A stretch of 64,000 nt of DNA from Chloroflexota bacterium. GTDB lineage: Bacteria > Chloroflexota > UBA11872 > VXOZ01. Of the stretch, positions 19,920-44,310 are shown in pieces; position 1 is the first letter of the stretch, and each line of letters begins with the position of its first letter. The DNA is taken from NCBI GenBank assembly GCA_963662335.2, contig CAXXVD010000002.1, positions 416,001 through 480,000 on the forward strand. The letters run 5' to 3'. The notes under the pieces were generated by a model. It did not search any database, was not told where the DNA came from, and worked only from the letters and a program-made list of their open reading frames with translations. Made by a program: the position numbers and the translations under genes.

Positions 19920-19988
19920 GTCATTCCCGCGAAAGCGGGAATCCATCTTTGCGGGCCTCCCGATAGATTCCCGCTTTCGCGGGAATGA
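19920..19988. repeat. Inverted pair of REP family C (gtcattcccgcgaaagcgggaatcc)
   Basis: Two copies in opposite orientation; family also at 7502, 17448, 26664, 40871-40940, 53654 and 60408. Confidence 0.85.
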
Positions 19989-20190
19989 CGGAGCGTGCTC
20001 GCGGGAATGACGGAGCGTGTTCGCGCTATTGACGGACAGAGAACTCGCCGTCATTTTCACTCCCTTGTGTGGTCGTTGCCTGGCCATGGTGATTACTTTG
20101 AAACAGCGCGACCAAGCCGTTCGCCTCCGCATCGAGTGTGGGGCAGCCAATTCCTCGCCGAGAGGCCACTGAGGAGAAAACCGCACCGTC

Positions 20191-29880: not shown

Positions 29881-30047
29881 AGGAGAAAAATGGGCAGATG
29901 GCGTAGACTGGGCGCGGCATGCAGCGCTAGGCGTGGGGCCGGAGCCTTCTACTCGATTATACCGCAGCCGGTAGCGCAGGTTGCAAACCTGCGCTACCGG
30001 AGGCGCGGGCGCGCCGGGTTCAATCTTGCCCCTTGCGGCTGAGCCGG

Positions 30048-30214
30048 CGGGCAGACGTAGCGCGGGGGCTTGTCCCCCGCCGGGCAGACGTAGCGCGGGG
30101 GCTTGTCCCCCGCCGGGCAGACGTAGCGCGGGGGCTTGTCCCCCGCCGGGCAGACGTAGCGCGGGGGCTTGTCCTCCGCCGGGCAGACGTAGCGCGGGGG
30201 CTTGTCCCCCGCCG
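30048..30214. repeat. Five tandem 33-bp units, each containing REP family A
   Basis: cgggcagacgtagcgcgggggcttgtcccccgc x5 with a single substitution in unit 4. Confidence 0.95.
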
Positions 30215-30350
30215 GCCCAAGCGGTATGAGGGCGCAAAGAGCGAACTCTGCACGAGGTTCCTGCCAGGGAGGACAACTTTCACTGCGCCGCCCGGCCGGA
30301 CTTGGCCGAGCACCGCTTTCGCGGGGGCATTCAGCCTCTTGGCCGGCCGT

Positions 30351-32510: not shown

Positions 32511-33731
32511 GGAAGGTCTGAACAAGTCGGTTTTAGCCAGGGAAGTAGTGGTGCGGGATTGTGGTGGTCATTTGAGGAGTGTTTTGGCGATTGAGCGGGG
32601 CTGTTTTGCCCCACTGTGGGCGCTGCTGGGAGCGTTTTTTGCTCCCGCTCGTGTTTTGGGCGCACTACGCCTGTGTCAGGCCACCAAGCGGGGTGCGGTC
32701 GTGGCCAGGTTGGCCAGTCCCAGCAGCAGCGCCAGCCGTTGCGTGTATTTGTGCAGGCCCCGGTAGCGCACCGTGGCGTAGCTGTCTTCGACAAGGTCGC
32801 CGAAGCGCCGCTTCACCCAGAGGAACGGATGTTCTACCTTGGCCCTGACCGACGCTTTGCGCTGCTCTGCCAGCGCCGCCGCGCTCCCTGCCGTCAGCCA
32901 CCGCCGCTGCCCAGGCCGCAGCGCCACCTGCCAGACCACCGCGCGCCCCTGATGTTCCGGCCGCTTCTGCACGCCTATGTACCCCGCGTCTCCCCAGACC
33001 TCCTGCTCCGCCCCGTGCAGCAACACCGCCGCTTGCGTGATGTCGTGCACGTTGGCCGACGTGGTGGCAAGACTATGCACCACCCCCGTCGCCGCGTCTG
33101 CCCCAATGTGCAACTTCATCCCGAAATGCCACTCGTTCCCCTTCTTCACCTGTCGCATCTCCGGATCCCGCTCCCCCGCAAGGTTCTTCGTCGATGTCGG
33201 CGCCGCGATAATCGTCGCGTCCACCACCGTCCCCTCCCGCAGCCGCAACCCCTGTGCCGCCAGATGCCCGTTGATCTCCGCCAGCAACCGCTCGCCCAAC
33301 CGGTGCTTCTCCAACAAGTGCCGAAAGTGCAGGATCGTCGTCTCGTCCGGCAACGCGTCCCGCAGCCGCAACCCCACGAACCGCCGCACCGGTTCCACCT
33401 CGTACAGCATGTCCTCCATCCCAGGGTCGCTCAGGTTGTAGAACAACTGCACACAGTGGATCCGCGACCTTGTCGAAGACAGCAGCATCACCGACAAGGG
33501 ATACGGCGGCCGCCCCCGTCCCGCTTTGGGATAGAACGGCGCTATGCACGCCTCCAACTCCGCCCACGGGATCAAGCCGTCCATGTGCTCCAAGAACTTC
33601 TCCCGACGCGTCTTGCGCTTCTTATGCGTGTACTCCATCTCCGCAAACGACTGCTGCTCCATCACCTTACTCCTCCACTCGCGGCATTTCCTTGGTATCA
33701 TAGGTATGCCACGTACTTGTTCAGAGGTTCC
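32511..33731 (-). mobile_element. IS5-family (IS5 subgroup) insertion sequence
   Basis: IRs ggaaggtctgaacaagt and (reverse complement) ggaacctctgaacaagt; flanks CTAG and TTAG fit a YTAR target but are not identical. Confidence 0.92.
32676..33662 (-). CDS. IS5 transposase carrying two 6-aa insertions
   Basis: QQSFAEMEY, PDETTILHFRHLLE, VDATII, HFGMKLHIG, WGDAGY and RAKVEHPF motifs. Confidence 0.93.
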   Translation of the reverse strand: MEQQSFAEMEYTHKKRKTRREKFLEHMDGLIPWAELEACIAPFYPKAGRGRPPYPLSVMLLSSTRSRIHCVQLFYNLSDPGMEDMLYEVEPVRRFVGLRLRDALPDETTILHFRHLLEKHRLGERLLAEINGHLAAQGLRLREGTVVDATIIAAPTSTKNLAGERDPEMRQVKKGNEWHFGMKLHIGADAATGVVHSLATTSANVHDITQAAVLLHGAEQEVWGDAGYIGVQKRPEHQGRAVVWQVALRPGQRRWLTAGSAAALAEQRKASVRAKVEHPFLWVKRRFGDLVEDSYATVRYRGLHKYTQRLALLLGLANLATTAPRLVA

Positions 33732-33837: not shown

Positions 33838-34725
33838 TCAGCGGGAGACGGGGATGCCGGTCGTATGCAGGCGGATGCGGTAGAGGCTCGTGCGGGCGGT
33901 GACGTAGAGCGTGCGCAGGTCGTCATCGCCCCATGCCACGTTGGCGGGTTGCTCGTCGCCGATGATGCGTCCGAGCACGTGCCCGGCCGGATTCATCACC
34001 CAGATGCCGCCCGGCCCGGTGCAAAATACGTTGCCGTTGGTATCCACCTTCATGCCGTCGGGACTGCCTTCGTCGTTGGAGGTCATGTCCGTCCACAGGC
34101 GGCCGTCCGCCAGCGCGCCGTCGGCCTTGACCGTGAACGCGCGGATGTGACGGCGGCGGCTGTCGTCGATATAGAGCGTCTGCTCGTCGGGCGCCAAGGC
34201 AAGGCCGTTCGGGCGGTCGAAGTCGTCCACCAGGAGGCGCAGCGCGCCGTCAGGCGTAATTAGATAGACGCCGCGAAAGTCCAGGTCCGGGGCCTGCCCC
34301 AAGTCTTCCACGCCGTAGGGCGGATCGGTAAAGTAGAGCGTGCCGTCGGAGCGCACGACCACGTCGTTGGGGCTGTTGAGTTTCATGCCCTGGTAGGAGT
34401 CCGCCAGGGTGACGTAACTGCCGTCGGCTTCCTGGCGGCTCACGCGGCGGCCCGAATGCTCGCACGAGATGAGGCGGCCCGCGCCGTCCAGGGTGAGGCC
34501 GTTCGCGTTGCCAGAGGGCGCGCGGTAGGTGCTTACTGAAAAGCCTTCCGGCGCCTCGCACCAGCACACCGTGCGGTTGTTGCGAATGTCGCTGAAGAGC
34601 AGACTGCCGTCGCGCCACACCGGCCCCTCGGTGAACGCGAAGCCGCCGGCCACGCGCTCCAGTTCCGCGCCGCGGGGCACGAGGTCGAAGAAGGCCGGGT
34701 TGCGTACGTCGAACGTGGTTGCCAT
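33838..34725 (-). CDS. SMP-30/gluconolactonase family protein
   Basis: FTEGPVW, LNSPNDV, YFTDPPYG, PNGL and PDGMKVD motifs. Confidence 0.93.
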   Translation of the reverse strand: MATTFDVRNPAFFDLVPRGAELERVAGGFAFTEGPVWRDGSLLFSDIRNNRTVCWCEAPEGFSVSTYRAPSGNANGLTLDGAGRLISCEHSGRRVSRQEADGSYVTLADSYQGMKLNSPNDVVVRSDGTLYFTDPPYGVEDLGQAPDLDFRGVYLITPDGALRLLVDDFDRPNGLALAPDEQTLYIDDSRRRHIRAFTVKADGALADGRLWTDMTSNDEGSPDGMKVDTNGNVFCTGPGGIWVMNPAGHVLGRIIGDEQPANVAWGDDDLRTLYVTARTSLYRIRLHTTGIPVSR

Positions 34726-34830: not shown

Positions 34831-35933
34831 GGAGACCTTTGCGTAATCCTGGTTTTGGGCGAGACAGAGGCGTGCCGGGCTGGGAAGCGGGATTTTTCAG
34901 CTTCCGCCGGGGGGTGTTCTTCGCCCGTGCGTGAGTATTGAGCGGGCTCTTTGCCCCCGCGCAGGGGTCAGATTGGTGCTGTGGAGGTGCGGGAACCGGG
35001 TTCCCGCCGTCTCTGCTCTGCCTTTCTCGGTTAGGCCGCGCGTGCCAGCAACGTCTCCGCCGTCCGCAGGTTGTACGCTATCAGTTTGAACCACACCTCC
35101 ACGCCGTTGCGGCCCAGGCCGCGGTAGCGCACCCGCCGGTAGCCGTAACTCCGCTTCAGCGTGCCGAACACCCGCTTCACCACCGCCCGCACCGGCGCTA
35201 TCCGCGCGTTGCGCTCCTGCTGCCACTGCGGCAATTCCCGCTGGTGCTTGTGCGACCGGTGCATGATGCAATCGTCTATCCCCTGTGACCGCAGCCACTC
35301 TCGCCGCCGCTTGGACTCGTACGCCTTGTCTGCGTACACCGCCTCCTCGTCACCACAGACCAAGTGGTCCGCCACCTCACTCTCAGATACTTTGGCCGGC
35401 GTCAGTTCCGCCCGCCGCACCAACCCCGACCCTAAATCCATCCCCACGTGCGCCTTGTACCCATAGTGCGCTTGCCGCTTGGCCCCGCTGCGCGTCCAAT
35501 CCGCGTCCGGGTCTTTCTCCCCTTTCTGCCCTAACTCCGCTTTCACCGACGGCCGCCGCACCTGCGCTTCCACCAGCGTCGCGTCCAGCAACGTCCCGTT
35601 CTTCACCACCAACCCTCGCTCCTCAAACTGCGCTCCCAACTCCGCAAACAACGCCTCGCTCAATCCATGCTCCGCTATCTGCGCCCGAAACCGGCTCAGC
35701 GTCGAGTGATCCGGCGTCTTGTCTGCCAATCCCAACCCCACGAACCGCCGGAACGAGAGCCGATCCCGCAACATCTCCTCCATCACCGGATCCGATAGGT
35801 TGTACCACTGCTGCAACAACAACACCTTCACCATCACCAACGGCGGATAGCTTGGCCGACCCCGCTCAGACGCATAGATGCCCGACACCAACTCCCCCAT
35901 CCGCTCCCAATCCACCGCCGCCAGGATTCACGC
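34831..35933 (-). mobile_element. Second IS5-family element, 5'-truncated transposase, both ends abutting family F REPs
   Basis: End ggagacctttgcgtaatcctgg at 34831; partial inverse ccaggattcacgc at 35921. Confidence 0.7.
35031..35915 (-). pseudogene. IS5-family transposase lacking its N-terminus
   Basis: GRPSYPP, PDHSTLSRFR, LDATLV, YGYKAH and YADKAY motifs; begins at VDW, and VKRVFG replaces the catalytic VE. Confidence 0.8.
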
Positions 35934-38047: not shown

Positions 38048-38192
38048 AGAGGCGGGGGACAAGCCCCCGCGCTACGACATTTGCGCAGTGGCGGGGATTG
38101 AGACCCCGTGATACGGCATATGCGCAGTGGCGGGGGCTGAGACCCCGTGATACGGCATATGCGCAGAGGCGGGGAACGAGCCCCCGCGCTAC
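38048..38192. repeat. Four tandem 39-bp units derived from REP family A, inner two diverged
   Basis: Outer units gcgggg(g)ac(a/g)agcccccgcgctac; inner units gcgggg..tgagaccccgtgatac. Confidence 0.8.
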
Positions 38193-38229
38193 GATCCGTC
38201 AGTGAATTGTGGAAGAGAGTTGCGGTCGT

Positions 38230-40680
38230 ATGCGGAATATCCTGAGCGGGCTGCTGGGCAGCCGGAGTGAGGAGGAAGCGCGGACCGCCACGCGTGCGCG
38301 GCAACGGGACGCCGGCGACTTTGGCGCGTTGCTGGGCGACCTGGGCGGCGGCGTTCTGCTCTACGAGGATGCGTTCGTCCTGGGCAGCGACGCCTACCGC
38401 CGCCGCCAGCCGCCGCTCGCGCTTGCATTGGAACGCGGCGACGAAACTGCCTACCGCGAGATTCAGAGCCAGTTCGACGGCTGGGACGGCGCGCGGAGTT
38501 TTGCGGGCGCTGTGCCGCGGGCGCGCGAGGTCTTCCGCCATTGCACGCCGCGCATGACCGCCACGCTGCGGCAGATGGCGCACGTGCTGGGCGGCGCGAG
38601 CGCGGCCAACCCTTCCCTGCTGCTCACCGGGCCCACCGGCTGCGGCAAGACCACACTGGCCAAGACCTTCTGCCACCTGGCAAACGAGCCGTGCGTGGAG
38701 ATCACGTTCAGCGGCGATACGGCGCTCAGCGACTTCTACCAATCGGTGGAGGTGGTCACCCAGGCCGGCAGCCAGGCGCACAGCACGGCCACGGTGCTCG
38801 GTCCGGCGGTGGACGCCATGCTCACCGGCAAGAAACTGCTGCTCAACGAGGTGAATATCATTCCCCAGGACCTGCTGAGCGTCTTCACCCAGGCGCTGGA
38901 CGCGCGCCAGGTGGTCCTCTCCGGCAGCGAGTGGGGGAACGTGACCGTGCCGGTGCACCCGCAGTTCGGCGTGATCGCCACCGCCAACCCCAACTACACC
39001 GGCACGCTGGAGATCGGCGTTACCTGGGAACGGCGCTTTGGCCGCGGCACGGGCAACGTGGCGCTGGACTTCCTGCCGCCGGAAGAAGAGGCCGAGGCGG
39101 TCTATCACGAGTTGCGGCGCGTGGCGGCGCTGGCGCAGGTGGGCGCGCCGCCGCCCATGGAGGCCTGCACGGCCGCGGCTGCGGTGGCGGCGGAACTGCG
39201 CAGCCACCCGGAACTCGGCGGCATCATGCGCGACCGGATTTCCACGCGCTCGTTAGTGCACTGGCTCAGCGTGTGCGGCCTCACCGGCTTTGCCATGGCC
39301 GCGGTGGCGCGGGACGCGATCTTGACGCTCGCGCCGCCTGAGGCGCGAGAGGAAGCGGCCGCGCTTGTGGGGAAACTGCTGCGCACCGTGGGCTGGCCCG
39401 CGCGGACGCAGCGCCGGGTGAGCGGCGTGCTGCTGCCGGAGATTACCGTGCCGGAGGAGAGCGTGGTCGCGCTGAGCAGTCTCGCGCCCGCGCCGACGCC
39501 CTTTGCTCAGGACGAAGAGAGCGCCCAGCGCGCCGGCGGGTTGGAGCAAGAGGTCTACCAGCCGCTCGACGGCGCCGCATCGGGCGGCCAACCGGCGCTG
39601 GCGCGCTACCAGTGCGTTCTCCCCGACGGCACGCGCTTGCGCCTGGAAGAGCCGCTCTACACCTGGGCCGGAAACCCCATGGCCCTGGGGCTGCGCCTGC
39701 GGGCGTGGGATCCAAACGGGTTCGAGATTGCGGACCCGGCGCGGCTGGAGGCGTTGGAGGCCGTCCTCGGCGCGGAATACGGCCTCACGGTGCCTAGGCC
39801 AATTGGCAACGTGCCGGCCGCCGGCGTGGCCCTGCCCTGCCTGACACGCTCCGGCTGGACGGCGCTGCGCCTGCTGGAGGCGGCGCTGGCGCTCGACCGG
39901 CCGGTGTACGTCAAAGGCCCGCCGGGCAGCGGCAAGTCGGCGCTGGTGCGCACGCTGGCCCGGCTGCGGCAGACGCCGCTGGTGGAACTCTCGTTTACGG
40001 GCGAGACCTCCAAGCACGACCTGCTGGTCAGCCGCCGCCTGCGCACGGGCGAGACCCAATGGACGGTGCAGGCCTTTCTGGAAGCGGTGCTCAAGGGCTA
40101 CCTGGTGCTGGTGAACGACTATAACCTGGCCTATTCGGACGTGCACTCCCTGCTGAATAGCCTCTTCGACAAGGGCCGGCGCATTACGCTGCCGGACGGC
40201 CGGACGGTGACGGCGCACCCGGGCTTCCGGCTGGTTGCCACCGGCCAGCCGGAAGGCCCGGGCGTGAAGCCGCTCAACGAGGGCGTGGAAAACCGCTTCG
40301 GCGCGATTCTGGAACTCGCGTATCCGTCGTCCGGCGAAGAACTGGCCATCCTGCGCAGCGTGGGGCGCGGCCTGCCCGCGCCAACCCTGCGCGCGGTGGT
40401 GGACTTCGTCGGCCAATGCCGGCGCTGGGCGGCCGGCGCGGCGCCGGAGGACCTGGCGCAGGAAACGCTCTGGCAGGACGCGGTCTCGCCGGAGTTGATC
40501 GCCGCCGTGGCGGCGGCCGGCAACTGGAGCACGGCGGAATTGGTGGCGCTGGCGCGAGAGGCGGAAGACGGCGCGGCGGTGGTGGAACGGTTCCAGGAGG
40601 GCGTGCTCTCAGCCGCCAGCCCCGCCGCCCGCCGCATCCTGGAGGCGCTGCTGCTGCAATATAACGTGACGGTAGAGTGA
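38230..40680 (+). CDS. Tandem AAA_5 (MoxR/CbbQ/midasin-like) ATPase
   Basis: Two Walker A motifs GPTGCGKT and GPPGSGKS, each followed by HPxF..ATxNP/QP and RF arginine-finger motifs; Walker B variants LLLNE and VLVND. Confidence 0.9.
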   Translation: MRNILSGLLGSRSEEEARTATRARQRDAGDFGALLGDLGGGVLLYEDAFVLGSDAYRRRQPPLALALERGDETAYREIQSQFDGWDGARSFAGAVPRAREVFRHCTPRMTATLRQMAHVLGGASAANPSLLLTGPTGCGKTTLAKTFCHLANEPCVEITFSGDTALSDFYQSVEVVTQAGSQAHSTATVLGPAVDAMLTGKKLLLNEVNIIPQDLLSVFTQALDARQVVLSGSEWGNVTVPVHPQFGVIATANPNYTGTLEIGVTWERRFGRGTGNVALDFLPPEEEAEAVYHELRRVAALAQVGAPPPMEACTAAAAVAAELRSHPELGGIMRDRISTRSLVHWLSVCGLTGFAMAAVARDAILTLAPPEAREEAAALVGKLLRTVGWPARTQRRVSGVLLPEITVPEESVVALSSLAPAPTPFAQDEESAQRAGGLEQEVYQPLDGAASGGQPALARYQCVLPDGTRLRLEEPLYTWAGNPMALGLRLRAWDPNGFEIADPARLEALEAVLGAEYGLTVPRPIGNVPAAGVALPCLTRSGWTALRLLEAALALDRPVYVKGPPGSGKSALVRTLARLRQTPLVELSFTGETSKHDLLVSRRLRTGETQWTVQAFLEAVLKGYLVLVNDYNLAYSDVHSLLNSLFDKGRRITLPDGRTVTAHPGFRLVATGQPEGPGVKPLNEGVENRFGAILELAYPSSGEELAILRSVGRGLPAPTLRAVVDFVGQCRRWAAGAAPEDLAQETLWQDAVSPELIAAVAAAGNWSTAELVALAREAEDGAAVVERFQEGVLSAASPAARRILEALLLQYNVTVE

Positions 40681-41032
40681 GCGCGGCGGTCGATCCGTAG
40701 CGCGGGGGCTTGTCCCCCGCCTCCTGCGACGCGCCGCTACCGTCGGAGTAGGGGCACGACATGTCGTGCCCCTACTCCGACGGAAAGAGAAGATGAATTC
40801 CCGCGAAGGGGAATTCACCATGATCGGACAACAGCCACATTAGAGAATGAAGATGAACCGTTCTTTGTCCGTCATTCCCGCGAAAGCGGTAATCCATCTT
40901 CGCCGCGCCCGCAGTGGATTACCGCTTTCGCGGGAATGACGGATACCATCGCGCTACATTCATCGTATTTGCGAAATCGTAGCGCGGGGGCTTGTCCCCC
41001 GCAGCAGCGGGAGCGCGGCACGAGAGCAAGGC

Positions 41033-43030
41033 ATGGCCACAACGGCAACAACAAACGCGGCAACGCGGGCCGAGGCCCGCGTGCGCGAAACGCGCTACAC
41101 CCACGGCGAGGTCGTGGCGCTGGCGCGGCTGATTCTGCGCGACGCGCGCCTGAACGTCGTTGCGGGCAGCGAGTGGGCCTACAGCGCCCGCGGCCACACC
41201 CTCGCGTACCCGTCGCGGGTGCTGGACACCTGGCCCGGCACCAGCGTCGTCGGCGCGATCTGCCAGCAGATGGCGGAAGCGCGGCACACCGGCGTCATGG
41301 GTGAGCGGGCACTCCAGAGCTTTGCCCGCATCGCGCCACTGGACTTCGGCGCCGTCATGCCGTTCGCGCGTTTCGTCAACGAACTGCGCGTCAACCGCAT
41401 GCACCTGGAGCGGCACCCCGGCTCGGCGCGTTTCCTGCGGGCGCTCTACGCCGACAATCCCCAGTGGGCGTCGGCCCGGCGGCGCAGCACGCCCTTGCGG
41501 GAACAGGTGGAGCAGGGCTTGCTGGCGCGCTGGCTCCAAGAGGTGTGGCCGGAGCGCGCGCGCCCGCCGCGGGTTGGCGGCGCAGCGCACCGCTACGTGG
41601 AGGCGCTGTGGCCCGGCGTGCGCGACGCGCTGCTGCGGGACTCCATGCCGCAGATGTTGGACGTGCTCGCGCGGCGGATGCTGCCGATTCTGGACGAACT
41701 GGTGGCGGAAGACGACCGGCGCGCCCGCCAGCGGCCCGAGACCGAACGGCCTACGCCCGAAGAAGACGCGAGCGCCGAGGACGAAGCCGAGGCCCTGGGT
41801 GAGTTGCGCATCGAAACGGTCGTGGCTGAGGCCGGTTCAGCCGCCGCCCGGCCAGAATCCGGCGAGCGGCAAGATTCCGCCGATTCCAGGTCCGATTCCG
41901 AGCCGGAGCCAGGCTCAGCGGCTGAAGACGGCGGCCCGGCCAAGGTGGAGAGCAGCCCCCACGAGCAGGCCGAATTGCGCGACGACGCCGAGCCGGGCGC
42001 GCAGCCGCAATCCCGTCCCCAAGGCCCGCCGCGCCTGATCGACCCGCGCATGTTCAAGGCGCGTCCCGGCCAACTCACGCCCATGCCGCGCACCATCGTG
42101 CAGGGGCTGGGCGAGCGGCCGGCCGCGCCCAAGACCGACTACGAGAACTTCGACTACCGCGCGGCCGTGCGGCGGCTGGAACCGGCCATCCGGCGCTCGC
42201 TGGACGGCGAGGCCGGACGGAAGGGCCTCAAGGAGATCATGATGCGCCGCCGCTTTGGCACCCTGGAACCGGGGCGGCGTCCCCGCCGGCGGCGCGGCGG
42301 CGACAGCGGCGAGATCGACACCGACCACGTGGAGCGCCTGGTCGTCGCGCCGGAACAAGCCTTCCTCAAGGGCGTGCGCGCGCCGCGGGCGGACCACCAG
42401 AAGGACTTTGCCGCTATCATCCTCATAGACGTCAGCGGCAGCATGGTGGCCAAGGGCTACTCGACGCGCAAGTTCGACCACACCGTGAACGCCGCGATCA
42501 TCTTCAGCGAGATCCACGAGCGGCTGCGCATTCCCTACCAGATGATGGCGTTCTCCGAGGAGGTCTGGCGGCTGCGGACGTTCGAAGAATGCGCGTTCGC
42601 GACGCAGGTGGTGGCGAACGAGCGCACCTACACGCCCAAAGACCTGAGCGGCGTCTTTCGCGCCATGTACGAGCAGCCGCACAAGAAGACGGACGACGCC
42701 GGCGCCGTGCGCCAGGCGGTGGCGGACGTGCAGCAGCAGAAGGGATTCAAGACTATACTGGTCTTAACGGACGGCATCTCCTCCAACCGGCGGAAGTTGC
42801 AGGAGGTGCTGCTGCGCGTGGAGCGGCGCAACGGGATGGTCGGCGCCGGCGACGCGCTGGGCATCATCGTCTTCGGCATCGGCGTGCCGGGCGACGCGCT
42901 GAGCGAATCCTACGTGGCGCAGGCCGACGGCAAATTCCTGCGCTGCCTGCAAACGGTGGTGGTGCCCGACGTGTCCCGGCTGCCGCGCATGATACAGACG
43001 ACGATCGAGCGCCGCATCCGCGGCGTATAG
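41033..43030 (+). CDS. VWA-domain protein (CobT-like) with acidic low-complexity linker
   Basis: MIDAS motif ILIDVSGSM, T in KTDD, LVLTDG; E/D/P/S/A-rich central region. Confidence 0.88.
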   Translation: MATTATTNAATRAEARVRETRYTHGEVVALARLILRDARLNVVAGSEWAYSARGHTLAYPSRVLDTWPGTSVVGAICQQMAEARHTGVMGERALQSFARIAPLDFGAVMPFARFVNELRVNRMHLERHPGSARFLRALYADNPQWASARRRSTPLREQVEQGLLARWLQEVWPERARPPRVGGAAHRYVEALWPGVRDALLRDSMPQMLDVLARRMLPILDELVAEDDRRARQRPETERPTPEEDASAEDEAEALGELRIETVVAEAGSAAARPESGERQDSADSRSDSEPEPGSAAEDGGPAKVESSPHEQAELRDDAEPGAQPQSRPQGPPRLIDPRMFKARPGQLTPMPRTIVQGLGERPAAPKTDYENFDYRAAVRRLEPAIRRSLDGEAGRKGLKEIMMRRRFGTLEPGRRPRRRRGGDSGEIDTDHVERLVVAPEQAFLKGVRAPRADHQKDFAAIILIDVSGSMVAKGYSTRKFDHTVNAAIIFSEIHERLRIPYQMMAFSEEVWRLRTFEECAFATQVVANERTYTPKDLSGVFRAMYEQPHKKTDDAGAVRQAVADVQQQKGFKTILVLTDGISSNRRKLQEVLLRVERRNGMVGAGDALGIIVFGIGVPGDALSESYVAQADGKFLRCLQTVVVPDVSRLPRMIQTTIERRIRGV

Positions 43031-43045
43031 AGCGAGAAGGAGCGT

Positions 43046-43819
43046 GTGGTGAGGCCCGGTATTCAACACTACGCAAACGACAACCTGCCGTGGGGCATCC
43101 GTGCGGCGCTCCTGGTGTGGCTGCTGTGGCTTGTGCTGGCGCACCTCTGCCGGGCGCTGCTCGACTTCTACACGGCATTCGCGCCGCTGCGCTTTCTGGC
43201 CGACGCGAGCCCCCAGACGCTGCGCGGCACCAGTTTCTCCCCCGGCGTCTTGGTTGCCGCCGTGTTGCTGCTGCCCGCGCTGCTCGCCGCCGGTATTGCC
43301 TTTCGCCTGGTTGCCGCCCGCTACCCGGGCGCGCCCTTGCAGGCGCTGGCGTTCACGCGGCTCAATCCGGTGTGGGTGCTGGCGGCCGTGGTGCTGCTGG
43401 GGGTGCTGCTGACGTTTCTGCTGCGGCTCGCCCTGGGGTGGTCGGGCTACCCCCTGCCGCTGCTGGAAGCGCCCGCCGGCTACTTCTCCCTGCTCGATGC
43501 GCTCGCCTACGGCGTGAGCGTGCCGCTGACGGCGCTGCTGGCGGGGGTGCTGGTCTTTGGGTTCTGCTATCCGGTGCTGGTGGCGCGCTTGGGCCTCTGG
43601 GCCGGCGGCTTGGCGTGCGCCGTCTGCTTCGCGCTGCCGCAGCTTGCCGCGCAAGGCGTCTACTGGCAACCGGCGGCGGCCCTGCTGGTCATGGGCGTCT
43701 ACCTGACGGCGGTGCGGGCGCGCACGGAATCGGCCTACACCGCGACGCTCGGCTATACCGGCGTTGCTATCTACCTGGCGCTGTCGGCAGTGGTGGCGGA
43801 GCTAGCCGCGGCCGCTTAG
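43046..43819 (+). CDS. CPBP/Abi (CAAX protease)-like membrane protein lacking catalytic residues
   Basis: Multi-TM; topology VPLTALLAGVLVFG, CFALPQ, RARTES, LGYTGVA matches CPBP spacing without EExxxR, FxxxH and HxxxN. Confidence 0.6.
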   Translation: MVRPGIQHYANDNLPWGIRAALLVWLLWLVLAHLCRALLDFYTAFAPLRFLADASPQTLRGTSFSPGVLVAAVLLLPALLAAGIAFRLVAARYPGAPLQALAFTRLNPVWVLAAVVLLGVLLTFLLRLALGWSGYPLPLLEAPAGYFSLLDALAYGVSVPLTALLAGVLVFGFCYPVLVARLGLWAGGLACAVCFALPQLAAQGVYWQPAAALLVMGVYLTAVRARTESAYTATLGYTGVAIYLALSAVVAELAAAA

Positions 43820-44235
43820 CCGTCCCGCAAGAGACTGCGGCCCGTGGCGGCGGCGACGATTGCGTACAGCGGATCGATGACCGACCACATGACCAGATAG
43901 GGCATCTGCTGCACGTCGGCTTCCAAGGTCAGGAAGTCGAACCAATTCCAAAAGAACCACAAGGCCAGCAGAATGGCGGCCCACTTGGCGGCGTTGGCCG
44001 CCAGTGACGCGGCGGCCCCGGCCTCAGAATCCGCGGCCTGCTCCGCCGCCAACCCGCGGCGCACGTTCACCACCACGGCAACCACGATGCCCAACGCCAT
44101 GAACCAATCCAAGACGCTCCACACCGCGATGGGGTCGAGCGCGTCGCGGTAGAACGGGCTGAATACGAAGTGCACCGCCACAACGAGGGCGCTGCCGAGC
44201 AAGTATATGCCTAAGGGTTTCCGTGCGGCGTCCAT
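43816..44235 (-). CDS. Hypothetical membrane protein (about four TM helices)
   Basis: Hydrophobic ORF with AGAAAGGA RBS; no family recognised. Confidence 0.7.
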   Translation of the reverse strand: MDAARKPLGIYLLGSALVVAVHFVFSPFYRDALDPIAVWSVLDWFMALGIVVAVVVNVRRGLAAEQAADSEAGAAASLAANAAKWAAILLALWFFWNWFDFLTLEADVQQMPYLVMWSVIDPLYAIVAAATGRSLLRDG

Positions 44236-44310
44236 GCGCGTATCCTTTCTCCGGCTGCAACCTGAACTCCTAACGAATGACATTCATCCCGTAGCGCGGG
44301 GGCTTGTCCC

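Follow-up and report, generated by a model that had tools for sequence, protein, structure and literature searches.

Chaperones that pair a MoxR-class AAA+ ATPase with a VWA-domain protein insert metals or remodel complexes, as exemplified by NorQD, CbbQO, CobST and RavA-ViaA. To our knowledge, the characterised bacterial MoxR/VWA chaperones all use a single-module ATPase. Here we analysed a 64,000-nucleotide stretch of a Chloroflexota bacterium genome (assembly GCA_963662335.2, contig CAXXVD010000002.1, positions 416,001 to 480,000), hereafter called the window, in which three genes, named g1, g2 and g3, encode a tandem AAA_5 ATPase, a VWA protein and a multi-spanning membrane protein, respectively. 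A preliminary description of this stretch had proposed that the trio forms a split, miniature midasin-like machine attached to a membrane scaffold, and that all three proteins have degenerate catalytic motifs. Our results indicate that the conserved unit is the g1-g2 pair, and we favour, with moderate confidence, its identification as a remodelling chaperone of the NorQ-NorD and CbbQ-CbbO kind that is specific to Chloroflexota.

In NorD, linker residues 242-393 are unresolved and essential, the VWA finger enters the NorQ pore, the C-terminus touches the ring, and a linker-stretching model has been proposed (PMC13036017). Midasin and dynein are concatenated AAA_5 proteins whose modules lie in one ring (PMC7973254), and VWA8, an animal mitochondrial/peroxisomal protein, combines two dynein-like AAA+ modules with a VWA domain at the C-terminus of the same chain (PMC10743472). 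Operons of MoxR and vWA genes with one for a membrane-embedded peptidase are widespread, and degradation of proteins at the membrane has been proposed as their function (PMC3495828). Finally, CflP and LnsB, the partner of LnsA, are described as CPBP-family members that act as regulators or partners and not as proteases.

Results

The ATPase gene and the adaptor gene form a conserved pair

The three genes are co-oriented on the + strand, as had been described before. The 816-aa product of g1 (38230..40680) is a tandem AAA_5, MoxR-class ATPase; the 665-aa VWA adaptor g2 (41033..43030) follows after 352 bp, and the 257-aa g3 (43046..43819) after a further 15 bp. The ATG at 38230 agrees as a start with the N-termini of g1 homologues (MRNILSGLLG). 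A word-indexed protein search returned 83 relatives of g1, 45 of g2 and 25 of g3. Those of g1 fall into a close set of at least 79% identity and a distant set of 38-49%, the distant set of g2 lies at 34-37%, and every g3 relative is at least 65% identical. The named relatives of all three come from Chloroflexi/Chloroflexota metagenome-assembled genomes (MAGs).

To place the locus among genomes, representatives were scanned with a g1 alignment. The scan matched 140 stretches, of which 112 were confirmed and the best 80 kept, giving 63 distinct loci, all of them Chloroflexota by record title; it used two family-specific peptide patterns, which more distant tandem forms in other phyla could escape. 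Neighbouring genes were assigned by profile searches of six-frame open reading frames (ORFs). In 61 of the 63 loci, g1 is immediately followed on its strand by a member of the g2 family; the other two are L043, which ends inside g1 at a contig end, and L048, to which we return in the Discussion. In 13 of 16 close relatives, furthermore, g1 and g2 either share 4 nt or lie 2 nt apart, and the two genes are translationally coupled in most relatives.

The 64 g1 orthologues were placed in a maximum-likelihood tree, built in quick mode and uncertain in the position of several long branches; in it the window belongs to a fully supported 16-row clade on a stem of 1.42 substitutions per site. The g3 family was detected in 14 loci and the window (15/64). 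It is present in 15 of the 16 clade rows, and in the remaining one (L002) the contig ends first. Collectively, these data show that the conserved unit is the g1-g2 pair and that the trio is a feature of one clade. The synteny survey suggested in the preliminary description therefore came out in favour of the pair, and for the trio only within the 16-member clade of the window. Ratios of nonsynonymous to synonymous substitution rates (dN/dS) against four clade members were 0.10-0.23 for g1, 0.12-0.25 for g2 and 0.21-0.33 for g3; all three genes are under purifying selection.

The two ATPase modules share an unusual Walker B motif and differ in their sensors

Pfam AAA_5 matched two stretches of g1, residues ~129-260 and 559-690, with an E value of 3.4e-36 and 124.7 bits (cut-off 22), and the two modules that had been proposed are thus present. 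The core of module 1 (38614..39009, +) contains the Walker A motif GPTGCGKT (residues 134-141, 38629-38652, +) and the Walker B motif LLLNE (residues 203-207, 38836-38850, +). The core of module 2 (39904..40299, +) contains GPPGSGKS (residues 563-570, 39916-39939, +) and LVLVND (residues 625-630, 40102-40119, +). The segment between the modules (residues ~395-545, 39412..39864, +) is partly conserved in the alignment and shorter in some clades; it has no sequence relative in the PDB, the best match having an E value of 0.71.

We carried out a motif census of the 64 orthologues, in which columns were assigned against the annotated CbbQ from a Nitrobacter plasmid. Walker A is intact throughout, as GPTGCGKTT in module 1 and GPxGxGKS in module 2 (64/64 each). 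Walker B of module 1 reads hhhN-E in all 64, the canonical hhhhDE being absent; that of module 2 has Asn in all 64 as well, followed by Glu in 45 (N-E) and by Asp in 19 (N-D). The N-D orthologues are the clade of the window together with L048, L057 and L061. CbbQ has D-E at the aligned columns. Because the Asn is invariant in 64 of 64 orthologues, and because all three genes are under purifying selection, the change from Asp to Asn at Walker B is a conserved family signature and not degeneration. Both modules, which are 29% identical (over 143 residues, E 2e-16), carry it, and therefore the Asn looks like an old, selected feature.

The remaining motifs set the two modules apart. Sensor 1 is TANP in module 1 and lacks the Asn in module 2 (ATG or ATA), in 64 of 64 orthologues each. 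The Arg of the RF motif is present in both, as RRF in module 1 (63/64) and as ENRF in module 2 (64/64). Sensor 2 is STR in module 1 (64/64) and T-A-E, without Arg, in module 2 (62 of the 62 readable orthologues). By these motifs, module 1 has the full catalytic set apart from the Asn, and module 2 appears capable of nucleotide binding and poor in sensor residues.

When g1 was searched against PDB sequences, midasin ranked first (E 8e-48), with a score that is summed over many modules. The best single stretches were those of NorQ (58.1 bits), midasin (46.9), CbbQ (44.1) and CobS (29.5), suggesting that the modules of g1, taken one by one, resemble NorQ/CbbQ more than they do any individual module of midasin. 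Among NCBIfam equivalogs, g1 reached 65 bits with GvpN (cut-off 267) and 29 with CobS (cut-off 558). On these scores g1 and g2 appear to fall outside CobST and CbbQO, and membership of a characterised clade of that kind, which the preliminary description had named as a possible outcome, was not found. In a comparison with plasmids, g1 matched 1168 records; none covers at least 80% of the query, and each of the 10 that were listed is a gene with a single module. A phage or plasmid origin was considered and dropped, since g2 has no phage match and the plasmid matches of g1 are only partial.

The adaptor carries an intact MIDAS behind an acidic linker

The g2 protein starts with an apparently helical, CobT-N-like domain (residues 1-235, 41033..41737, +), which is followed by an acidic, Pro-rich linker (residues 240-345, 41750..42067, +). 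A basic-then-acidic segment, RRFG..RRPRRRR..GDSGEIDTDH (residues 406-432, 42248..42328, +), lies directly before the VWA domain (42416..42952, +). This domain contains the MIDAS (metal-ion-dependent adhesion site), made up of DVSGS at residues 466-470 (D466, S468 and S470; 42428-42442), T553 (42689-42691) and D580 (42770-42772). A complete MIDAS (DxSGS, TDGIS) was found in 57 of the 57 readable g2 orthologues. The linker contains 25% Asp or Glu and 13% Pro, with a net charge of -18 over residues 241-330, and both its length and its sequence vary between clades, features that support a long and presumably flexible connection between the N-domain and the VWA domain. The acidic linker and the intact MIDAS were thus correctly recognised from the start. 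An acidic linker and a MIDAS behind concatenated modules had been taken as the midasin layout; the order of N-domain, acidic linker and MIDAS is also that of NorD, CobT and CbbO, and so it is not specific to midasin.

The stretch rich in Arg and then acidic is nearly invariant across the family, with invariant columns at R406-G409, R415-R419, G423, G426, D429 and D431, and it aligns to the start of the C-terminal region of CobT. The C-terminal RRIR of g2 is nearly invariant as well. The N-domain has no Pfam match, and g2 alone has no sequence relative in the PDB. In the ESM Atlas model of a homologue with 34% identity (P0127), the N-domain (residues 17-235) superposes on N-domains of CobT, CobT_C and VWA proteins with template modelling (TM) scores of 0.64-0.75, normalised by the query. 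The g2 family profile also aligns end to end and collinearly with CobT (9uka_G), but with an E value of 0.3, which is not significant. Against Nitrobacter CbbO, hhalign covered the VWA part only (probability 48%, E 1.8e-4). One motif of the N-domain, at residues 77-82 (41261-41278), differs between clades: it reads QQMAE in the window and QQxxE in 16 of 16 members of its clade, HExxE in most other clades, and has HQ or HL in five loci. The HExxE form possibly binds a metal.

Distant relatives fuse the adaptor to several ATPase modules

At E≤1e-3, an exhaustive profile search with the g2 alignment returned 440 cluster representatives, of which 121 passed E≤1e-10 and 23 passed E≤1e-30. We scanned 29 of the 150 listed matches with Pfam, namely the long ones up to 5000 aa (one protein of 5198 aa was left out) and a sample of those of ~600 aa. 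CobT_C was present in 15 of the 29 and the CobT N-terminal family in one. In ten of the 29, AAA_5 modules are fused to a g2-like N-domain and VWA domain, and several of these carry 'Midasin AAA lid' or HEAT repeats. The fused chains contain one to six AAA_5 modules, and the named fusions come from MAGs of Deltaproteobacteria. N-E at Walker B occurs in fused relatives too (P0196, P0205, P0227, P0231 and P0264).

Two fusions bear on how the modules might be arranged. In P0256 (4471 aa), six AAA_5 modules of two types alternate three times and are followed by a g2-like N-domain and VWA domain; modules of one type score 51-54 bits with the module-2 profile and 26 with that of module 1, and those of the other type 20-26 bits with the module-1 profile and 2-6 with that of module 2. 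This arrangement would fit a ring of three double modules. In P0280 (2105 aa), four AAA_5 modules precede the same domains. The fusions support the view that g1 and g2 are coupled in function; a single ring with alternating modules becomes plausible through them, though not proven. TPR repeats were also noticed between the module pairs of P0256.

Membrane proteins follow the pair in half of the loci

The g3 protein has at least six hydrophobic segments in a hydropathy scan, in line with the multi-spanning protein seen earlier. Its assignment as an Rce1/CPBP-like protein comes from relatives. For a homologue that is 70% identical (P0139), 30 of the 30 nearest ESM Atlas clusters belong to PF02517 (Rce1-like), with a score of 0.95 and 196-197 of 256 language-model features shared. 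PF02517 was also matched at E≤1 by 19 of the 25 members of the g3 family; the best E value was 1.6e-4, and the homologue in L010 reached 19.2 bits against a cut-off of 22.4. The family profile found no sequence match in the PDB.

The catalytic motifs of CPBP proteins are EExxxR, FxxxH and HxxxN/D. In g3, residues 152-227 contain no Asp or Glu and there is no His beyond residue 33. The residues invariant in the family are E141, D151, Q199, R224 and S229, of which Q199 stands at an expected His position. By these motif definitions, g3 thus lacks the canonical CPBP catalytic residues, that is, the Glu-Glu and both His. The loop at residues 87-105, which is conserved (RYxGAPL) and has three Arg and no acidic residue, probably faces the cytosol according to hydropathy and the positive-inside rule.

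Among the 64 loci, the gene after g2 is g3 in 15 and a member of a second membrane family, here called M2, in 17 (for example L021:12086-12952 and L038:8949-9935), so that a membrane protein follows g1-g2 in 32. M2 proteins are multi-spanning, measure 285-330 aa and have a conserved N-terminus that looks cytosolic; we found no Pfam or NCBIfam family and no protease signature in them. Kinship between g3 and M2 was ruled out (hhalign probability 0.1%).

These results delimit the degeneracy that had been ascribed to all three proteins. It holds for g3 and, in part, for module 2 and for the g2 N-domain of the clade of the window. It does not hold for Walker A or the MIDAS, both of which are intact in every orthologue that could be read, nor for the Walker B Asn.

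Repeat elements have entered the spacer between g1 and g2

The 352-bp spacer between g1 and g2 (40681..41032) consists of repeat elements. It contains a 25-nt direct repeat (40696-40720 and 40978-41002), a unique perfect palindrome of 44 nt (40740-40783) and a perfect inverted repeat at 40868-40943, whose arms are 29 nt long and which represents a second repeat family. Copies related to this inverted repeat lie at 19920-19989, 26664, 53653 and 60408, with seven matches at up to three mismatches. A 24-nt hairpin element, GTAGCGCGGGGGCTTGTCCCCCGC, occurs in 24 copies between 7588 and 62569 of the window at up to three mismatches, where 0 are expected; among them are an array at 30044-30215 and copies at 38051-38194, 40697-40720 and 40979-41002. 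Five of the copies are arrayed with a 33-nt period beside a tRNA-Arg gene. All copies seem to be intergenic, those near the trio both flank and split the g1-g2-g3 operon, and the element looks like a repetitive extragenic palindromic (REP)-type repeat family.

The repeat spacer is absent from 13 of the 16 close relatives. Spacers of 352 nt (the window) and of 271 or 190 nt (L001, L013) occur only in the genomes that have copies of the repeat core. The invading repeats have broken up the ancestral coupling of the g1-g2 pair. Promoter and terminator scans of the spacer stayed at chance level. A regulatory RNA in the spacer was considered and dropped, the only matches being sub-threshold ones of microRNA models on the hairpins.

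Housekeeping genes surround the locus

The window has a G+C content of ~66%, and the third-position GC of g1, g2 and g3 (0.88-0.89) is like that of other window genes. The rest of the window is ordinary chromosome, with topoisomerase I, IlvD, PolA, a class II ribonucleotide reductase, sugar enzymes and two insertion sequence (IS) transposases. As had been noted before, no cob, cbb or nor genes are nearby: a Pfam scan of 37 window ORFs found none of these and no gvp or cox genes, and no nor, cbb or cob client operon was found among the scanned cluster representatives from the 63 loci either. The genes that flank the pair are clade-specific and of a housekeeping kind, including LexA, a RadA-like protein, IspD, MutL, RNase J, PolX, LeuA, LeuB, ribonucleotide reductase, rpsA, a ClpB/ClpC-like ATPase, and glycosyl hydrolases and transferases. 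In one clade (L019, L020, L023, L027, L039, L040 and others), the pair sits inside a core housekeeping cluster, between a divergent lexA and a string of rpsA, ClpB/ClpC-like, RadA-like and ispD genes.

A 155-aa ORF with three to four transmembrane segments (43816..44283, - strand) is convergent with g3 and overlaps its stop by 4 nt; in 12 related loci it has the trio on one side and the class II ribonucleotide reductase on the other. It is kept beside the trio in the clade, its family (cluster 12) being present in 12 loci of the clade and in the window, and it has no match in Pfam, NCBIfam or PADLOC. Upstream, two DDE_Tnp_1/DUF772 transposase genes (32676-33701 and 35031-35915, both on the - strand) bracket an SMP-30/gluconolactonase gene (33838-34725). 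The segment lies ~2.5 kb upstream of the locus and is a possible composite element.

Discussion

The reading that we favour, with the moderate confidence stated above, is that g1-g2 is a MoxR-class AAA+/VWA remodelling chaperone like NorQ-NorD and CbbQ-CbbO, that it is specific to Chloroflexota, that g1 forms a single trimeric ring and that g3 has a membrane-proximal role. Three g1 chains would form one six-module ring, in which the hydrolytic module 1 would alternate with module 2 as a nucleotide-binding or regulatory site. The VWA domain of g2 would dock on this ring with one element in the pore, and its MIDAS would hold an acidic residue of the client. ATP turnover could then stretch or twist the g2 linker and so remodel the client, for instance by cofactor insertion or by complex assembly or release, as proposed for NorQD. 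The clade of the window would have recruited g3, a putatively dead CPBP-fold membrane protein, as an anchor, a receptor or the client itself, and a sister clade would have recruited an unrelated membrane protein to the same position. Because two clades have membrane proteins at the same position, the pair probably acts near the membrane in about half of the lineages.

Several observations weigh against this reading. The Walker B Asn could make both g1 modules poor hydrolases. In L048, no g2-like ORF was found in the 8 kb to either side, even at E≤10; its g1 orthologue (L048:7875-10322) is a long branch of 1.34 substitutions per site with N-D in module 2. The profile searches suggested earlier confirmed AAA_5 in g1 and were less clear for its partners. 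The window g2 scored 23.2 bits with VWA_2, below the Pfam cut-off of 27, although VWA_2 matches 24 of 24 aligned family members (best E 3.3e-8), and the window g3 has no match of its own to PF02517 or to any other Pfam or NCBIfam family. Membrane association is not a trait of the whole family, because 22 of the 64 loci have a convergent gene or a contig end after g2 and no membrane gene (several being cut by the contig end), and another ten have rpsA and a ClpB/ClpC-like ATPase gene instead. Guesses at the client from neighbouring genes were dropped, the flanks being housekeeping genes that vary between clades.

The subunit arrangement and the ancestry of the pair leave room for two other views, both of which accept a AAA+/VWA machine. 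Six g1 chains might assemble in a type-II-like manner, as in ClpB or p97, so that a ring made of the six copies of module 1 is stacked on another made of those of module 2, with the rest of the NorQD-like mechanism kept. Tandem AAA+ proteins of other clades do stack in this way, the inter-module segment of ~150 residues is long enough for it, and the four modules of P0280 do not divide into one six-module ring. We nevertheless regard stacking as unlikely: midasin and dynein place their concatenated AAA_5 modules in one ring (PMC7973254), P0256 has exactly six alternating modules before its VWA domain, and the finger-position Arg in each g1 module could serve a neighbour of the other type. A more far-reaching view keeps the trimeric, alternating g1 ring and groups the pair with its fused two-, four- and six-module relatives as a prokaryotic lineage of multi-module AAA_5 rings with a VWA/MIDAS arm. 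This lineage would stand nearer to the single-chain machines of the midasin and VWA8 type than single-module MoxR proteins do, as their closest model among prokaryotes or even as their source. The midasin-like machine of the preliminary description survives here in part. A MoxR-class AAA+/VWA pair with an unusual two-module ATPase and fused relatives is indeed present, but the top rank of midasin came from summing over modules, and NorQ leads in single stretches. We regard the far-reaching view as unlikely.

Readings that give the locus a different function, or none, are far less probable than the chaperone reading. MoxR-vWA ternary systems with a variable third component are reported to be common in Chloroflexi (PMC7159879), and the third gene differs between clades here, so that a MoxR-vWA conflict system for defence, with g3 as membrane effector or sensor, has to be considered. 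It is very improbable. The g2 protein has no C-terminal effector domain, and Pfam and PADLOC detected no VMAP, iSTAND, FtsH or beta-propeller partner of the kinds defined in that paper; PADLOC gave only generic P-loop matches for g1 and none for g2, g3 or the 155-aa ORF. The neighbourhood is a housekeeping one with synteny that is stable within clades, g2 has no phage match, and g1 matches plasmid records only in part, the 10 listed ones being single-module genes. Membrane-proximal, ATP-dependent proteolysis after the manner of MoxR-vWA-YebA, with g3 as the peptidase, would be in keeping with the widespread operon of that type (PMC3495828) and with the resemblance of g3, by language-model features, to an intramembrane protease family. 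The absence of the Glu-Glu and of both His of the CPBP motifs, the restriction of g3 to one clade and the lack of a protease signature in M2 leave this reading a very small chance. Smallest of all is the probability that the motif changes record lost enzyme functions in a drifting, decaying locus. The clade of the window does sit on a long stem (1.42 substitutions per site), on which Walker B of module 2 changed from Glu to Asp and the g2 N-domain motif from HE to QQ, and repeat elements now split g1 from g2; but all three frames are intact in 16 of 16 clade members with dN/dS of 0.10-0.33, and not only the Walker B Asn (64 of 64 orthologues) but dozens of other columns, too, are invariant.

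The two-module form is conserved across at least 63 species-level genomes of Chloroflexota, with Asn at both Walker B sites and an apparent division of labour between the modules, and relatives fuse two to six modules to the adaptor. The pair would provide a compact and tractable model in which to study the evolution of concatenated AAA_5 rings (midasin, dynein and VWA8 among them) and the coordination between their active and inactive sites. In addition, g3 would add a case of a dead CPBP-fold membrane protein that was recruited as a partner.

Comparison with known systems

Like NorQ-NorD, which serves nitric oxide reductase maturation, and CbbQ-CbbO, a Rubisco activase, the pair combines an AAA_5 ATPase with an adaptor of ~70 kDa. 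The g2 protein resembles NorD- and CbbO-type adaptors in its apparently helical N-domain, its apparently flexible long linker and its C-terminal VWA domain with a MIDAS, and module 1 of g1 has sensor 1, the RF motif and an ISTR sensor 2 in common with CbbQ. Based on the contact between the NorD C-terminus and the ring (PMC13036017), the RRIR at the end of g2 could play a similar docking role. In contrast to NorQ and CbbQ, g1 has two modules per chain, N-E or N-D and not D-E at Walker B, and a module 2 without sensors 1 and 2. The pair also differs from both systems in that nor and cbb genes are not nearby and that g2 has the invariant Arg-rich segment. With the CobS-CobT cobaltochelatase motor it may share a CobT-N-like N-domain, as judged from the predicted structure of P0127, and distant g2 relatives carry CobT_C; it is set apart from this motor by the tandem g1, by the 37 scanned ORFs of the window, which include neither CobN nor any further cob gene, and by the insignificant E value (0.3) of the CobT match.

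The likeness to midasin/Rea1 lies in concatenated AAA_5 modules of the H2-insert type, in an acidic region before the MIDAS domain and, for the fused g2 relatives, in the Pfam 'Midasin AAA lid'. Midasin/Rea1 has six modules where g1 has two; the VWA domain here belongs to another protein, g2, and the host is bacterial. We know of no UBL-type clients for a bacterial g1-g2 pair. VWA8 could be regarded as a fused, eukaryotic counterpart of g1 and g2, a likeness drawn from its published description (PMC10743472).

For g3, CflP and LnsB are comparable members of the CPBP family, as is APH-1, a CPBP derivative; unlike g3, none of these is known to occur with a MoxR/VWA pair. Our searches of the literature outside subscription journals turned up neither a CPBP protein that accompanies a MoxR/VWA pair nor a tandem-AAA_5 MoxR with a VWA partner from Chloroflexota. 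The MoxR-vWA-YebA operon has the same layout as the trio, with a MoxR ATPase, a vWA protein and a polytopic membrane protein of a peptidase fold (PMC3495828). YebA is transglutaminase-like, whereas g3 is CPBP-like, lacks the catalytic residues and is confined to one clade. Taken together, MoxR/VWA chaperones and triads of MoxR, vWA and a membrane peptidase (PMC3495828) are already known, and the pair described here is an uncommon form of this familiar type of chaperone.

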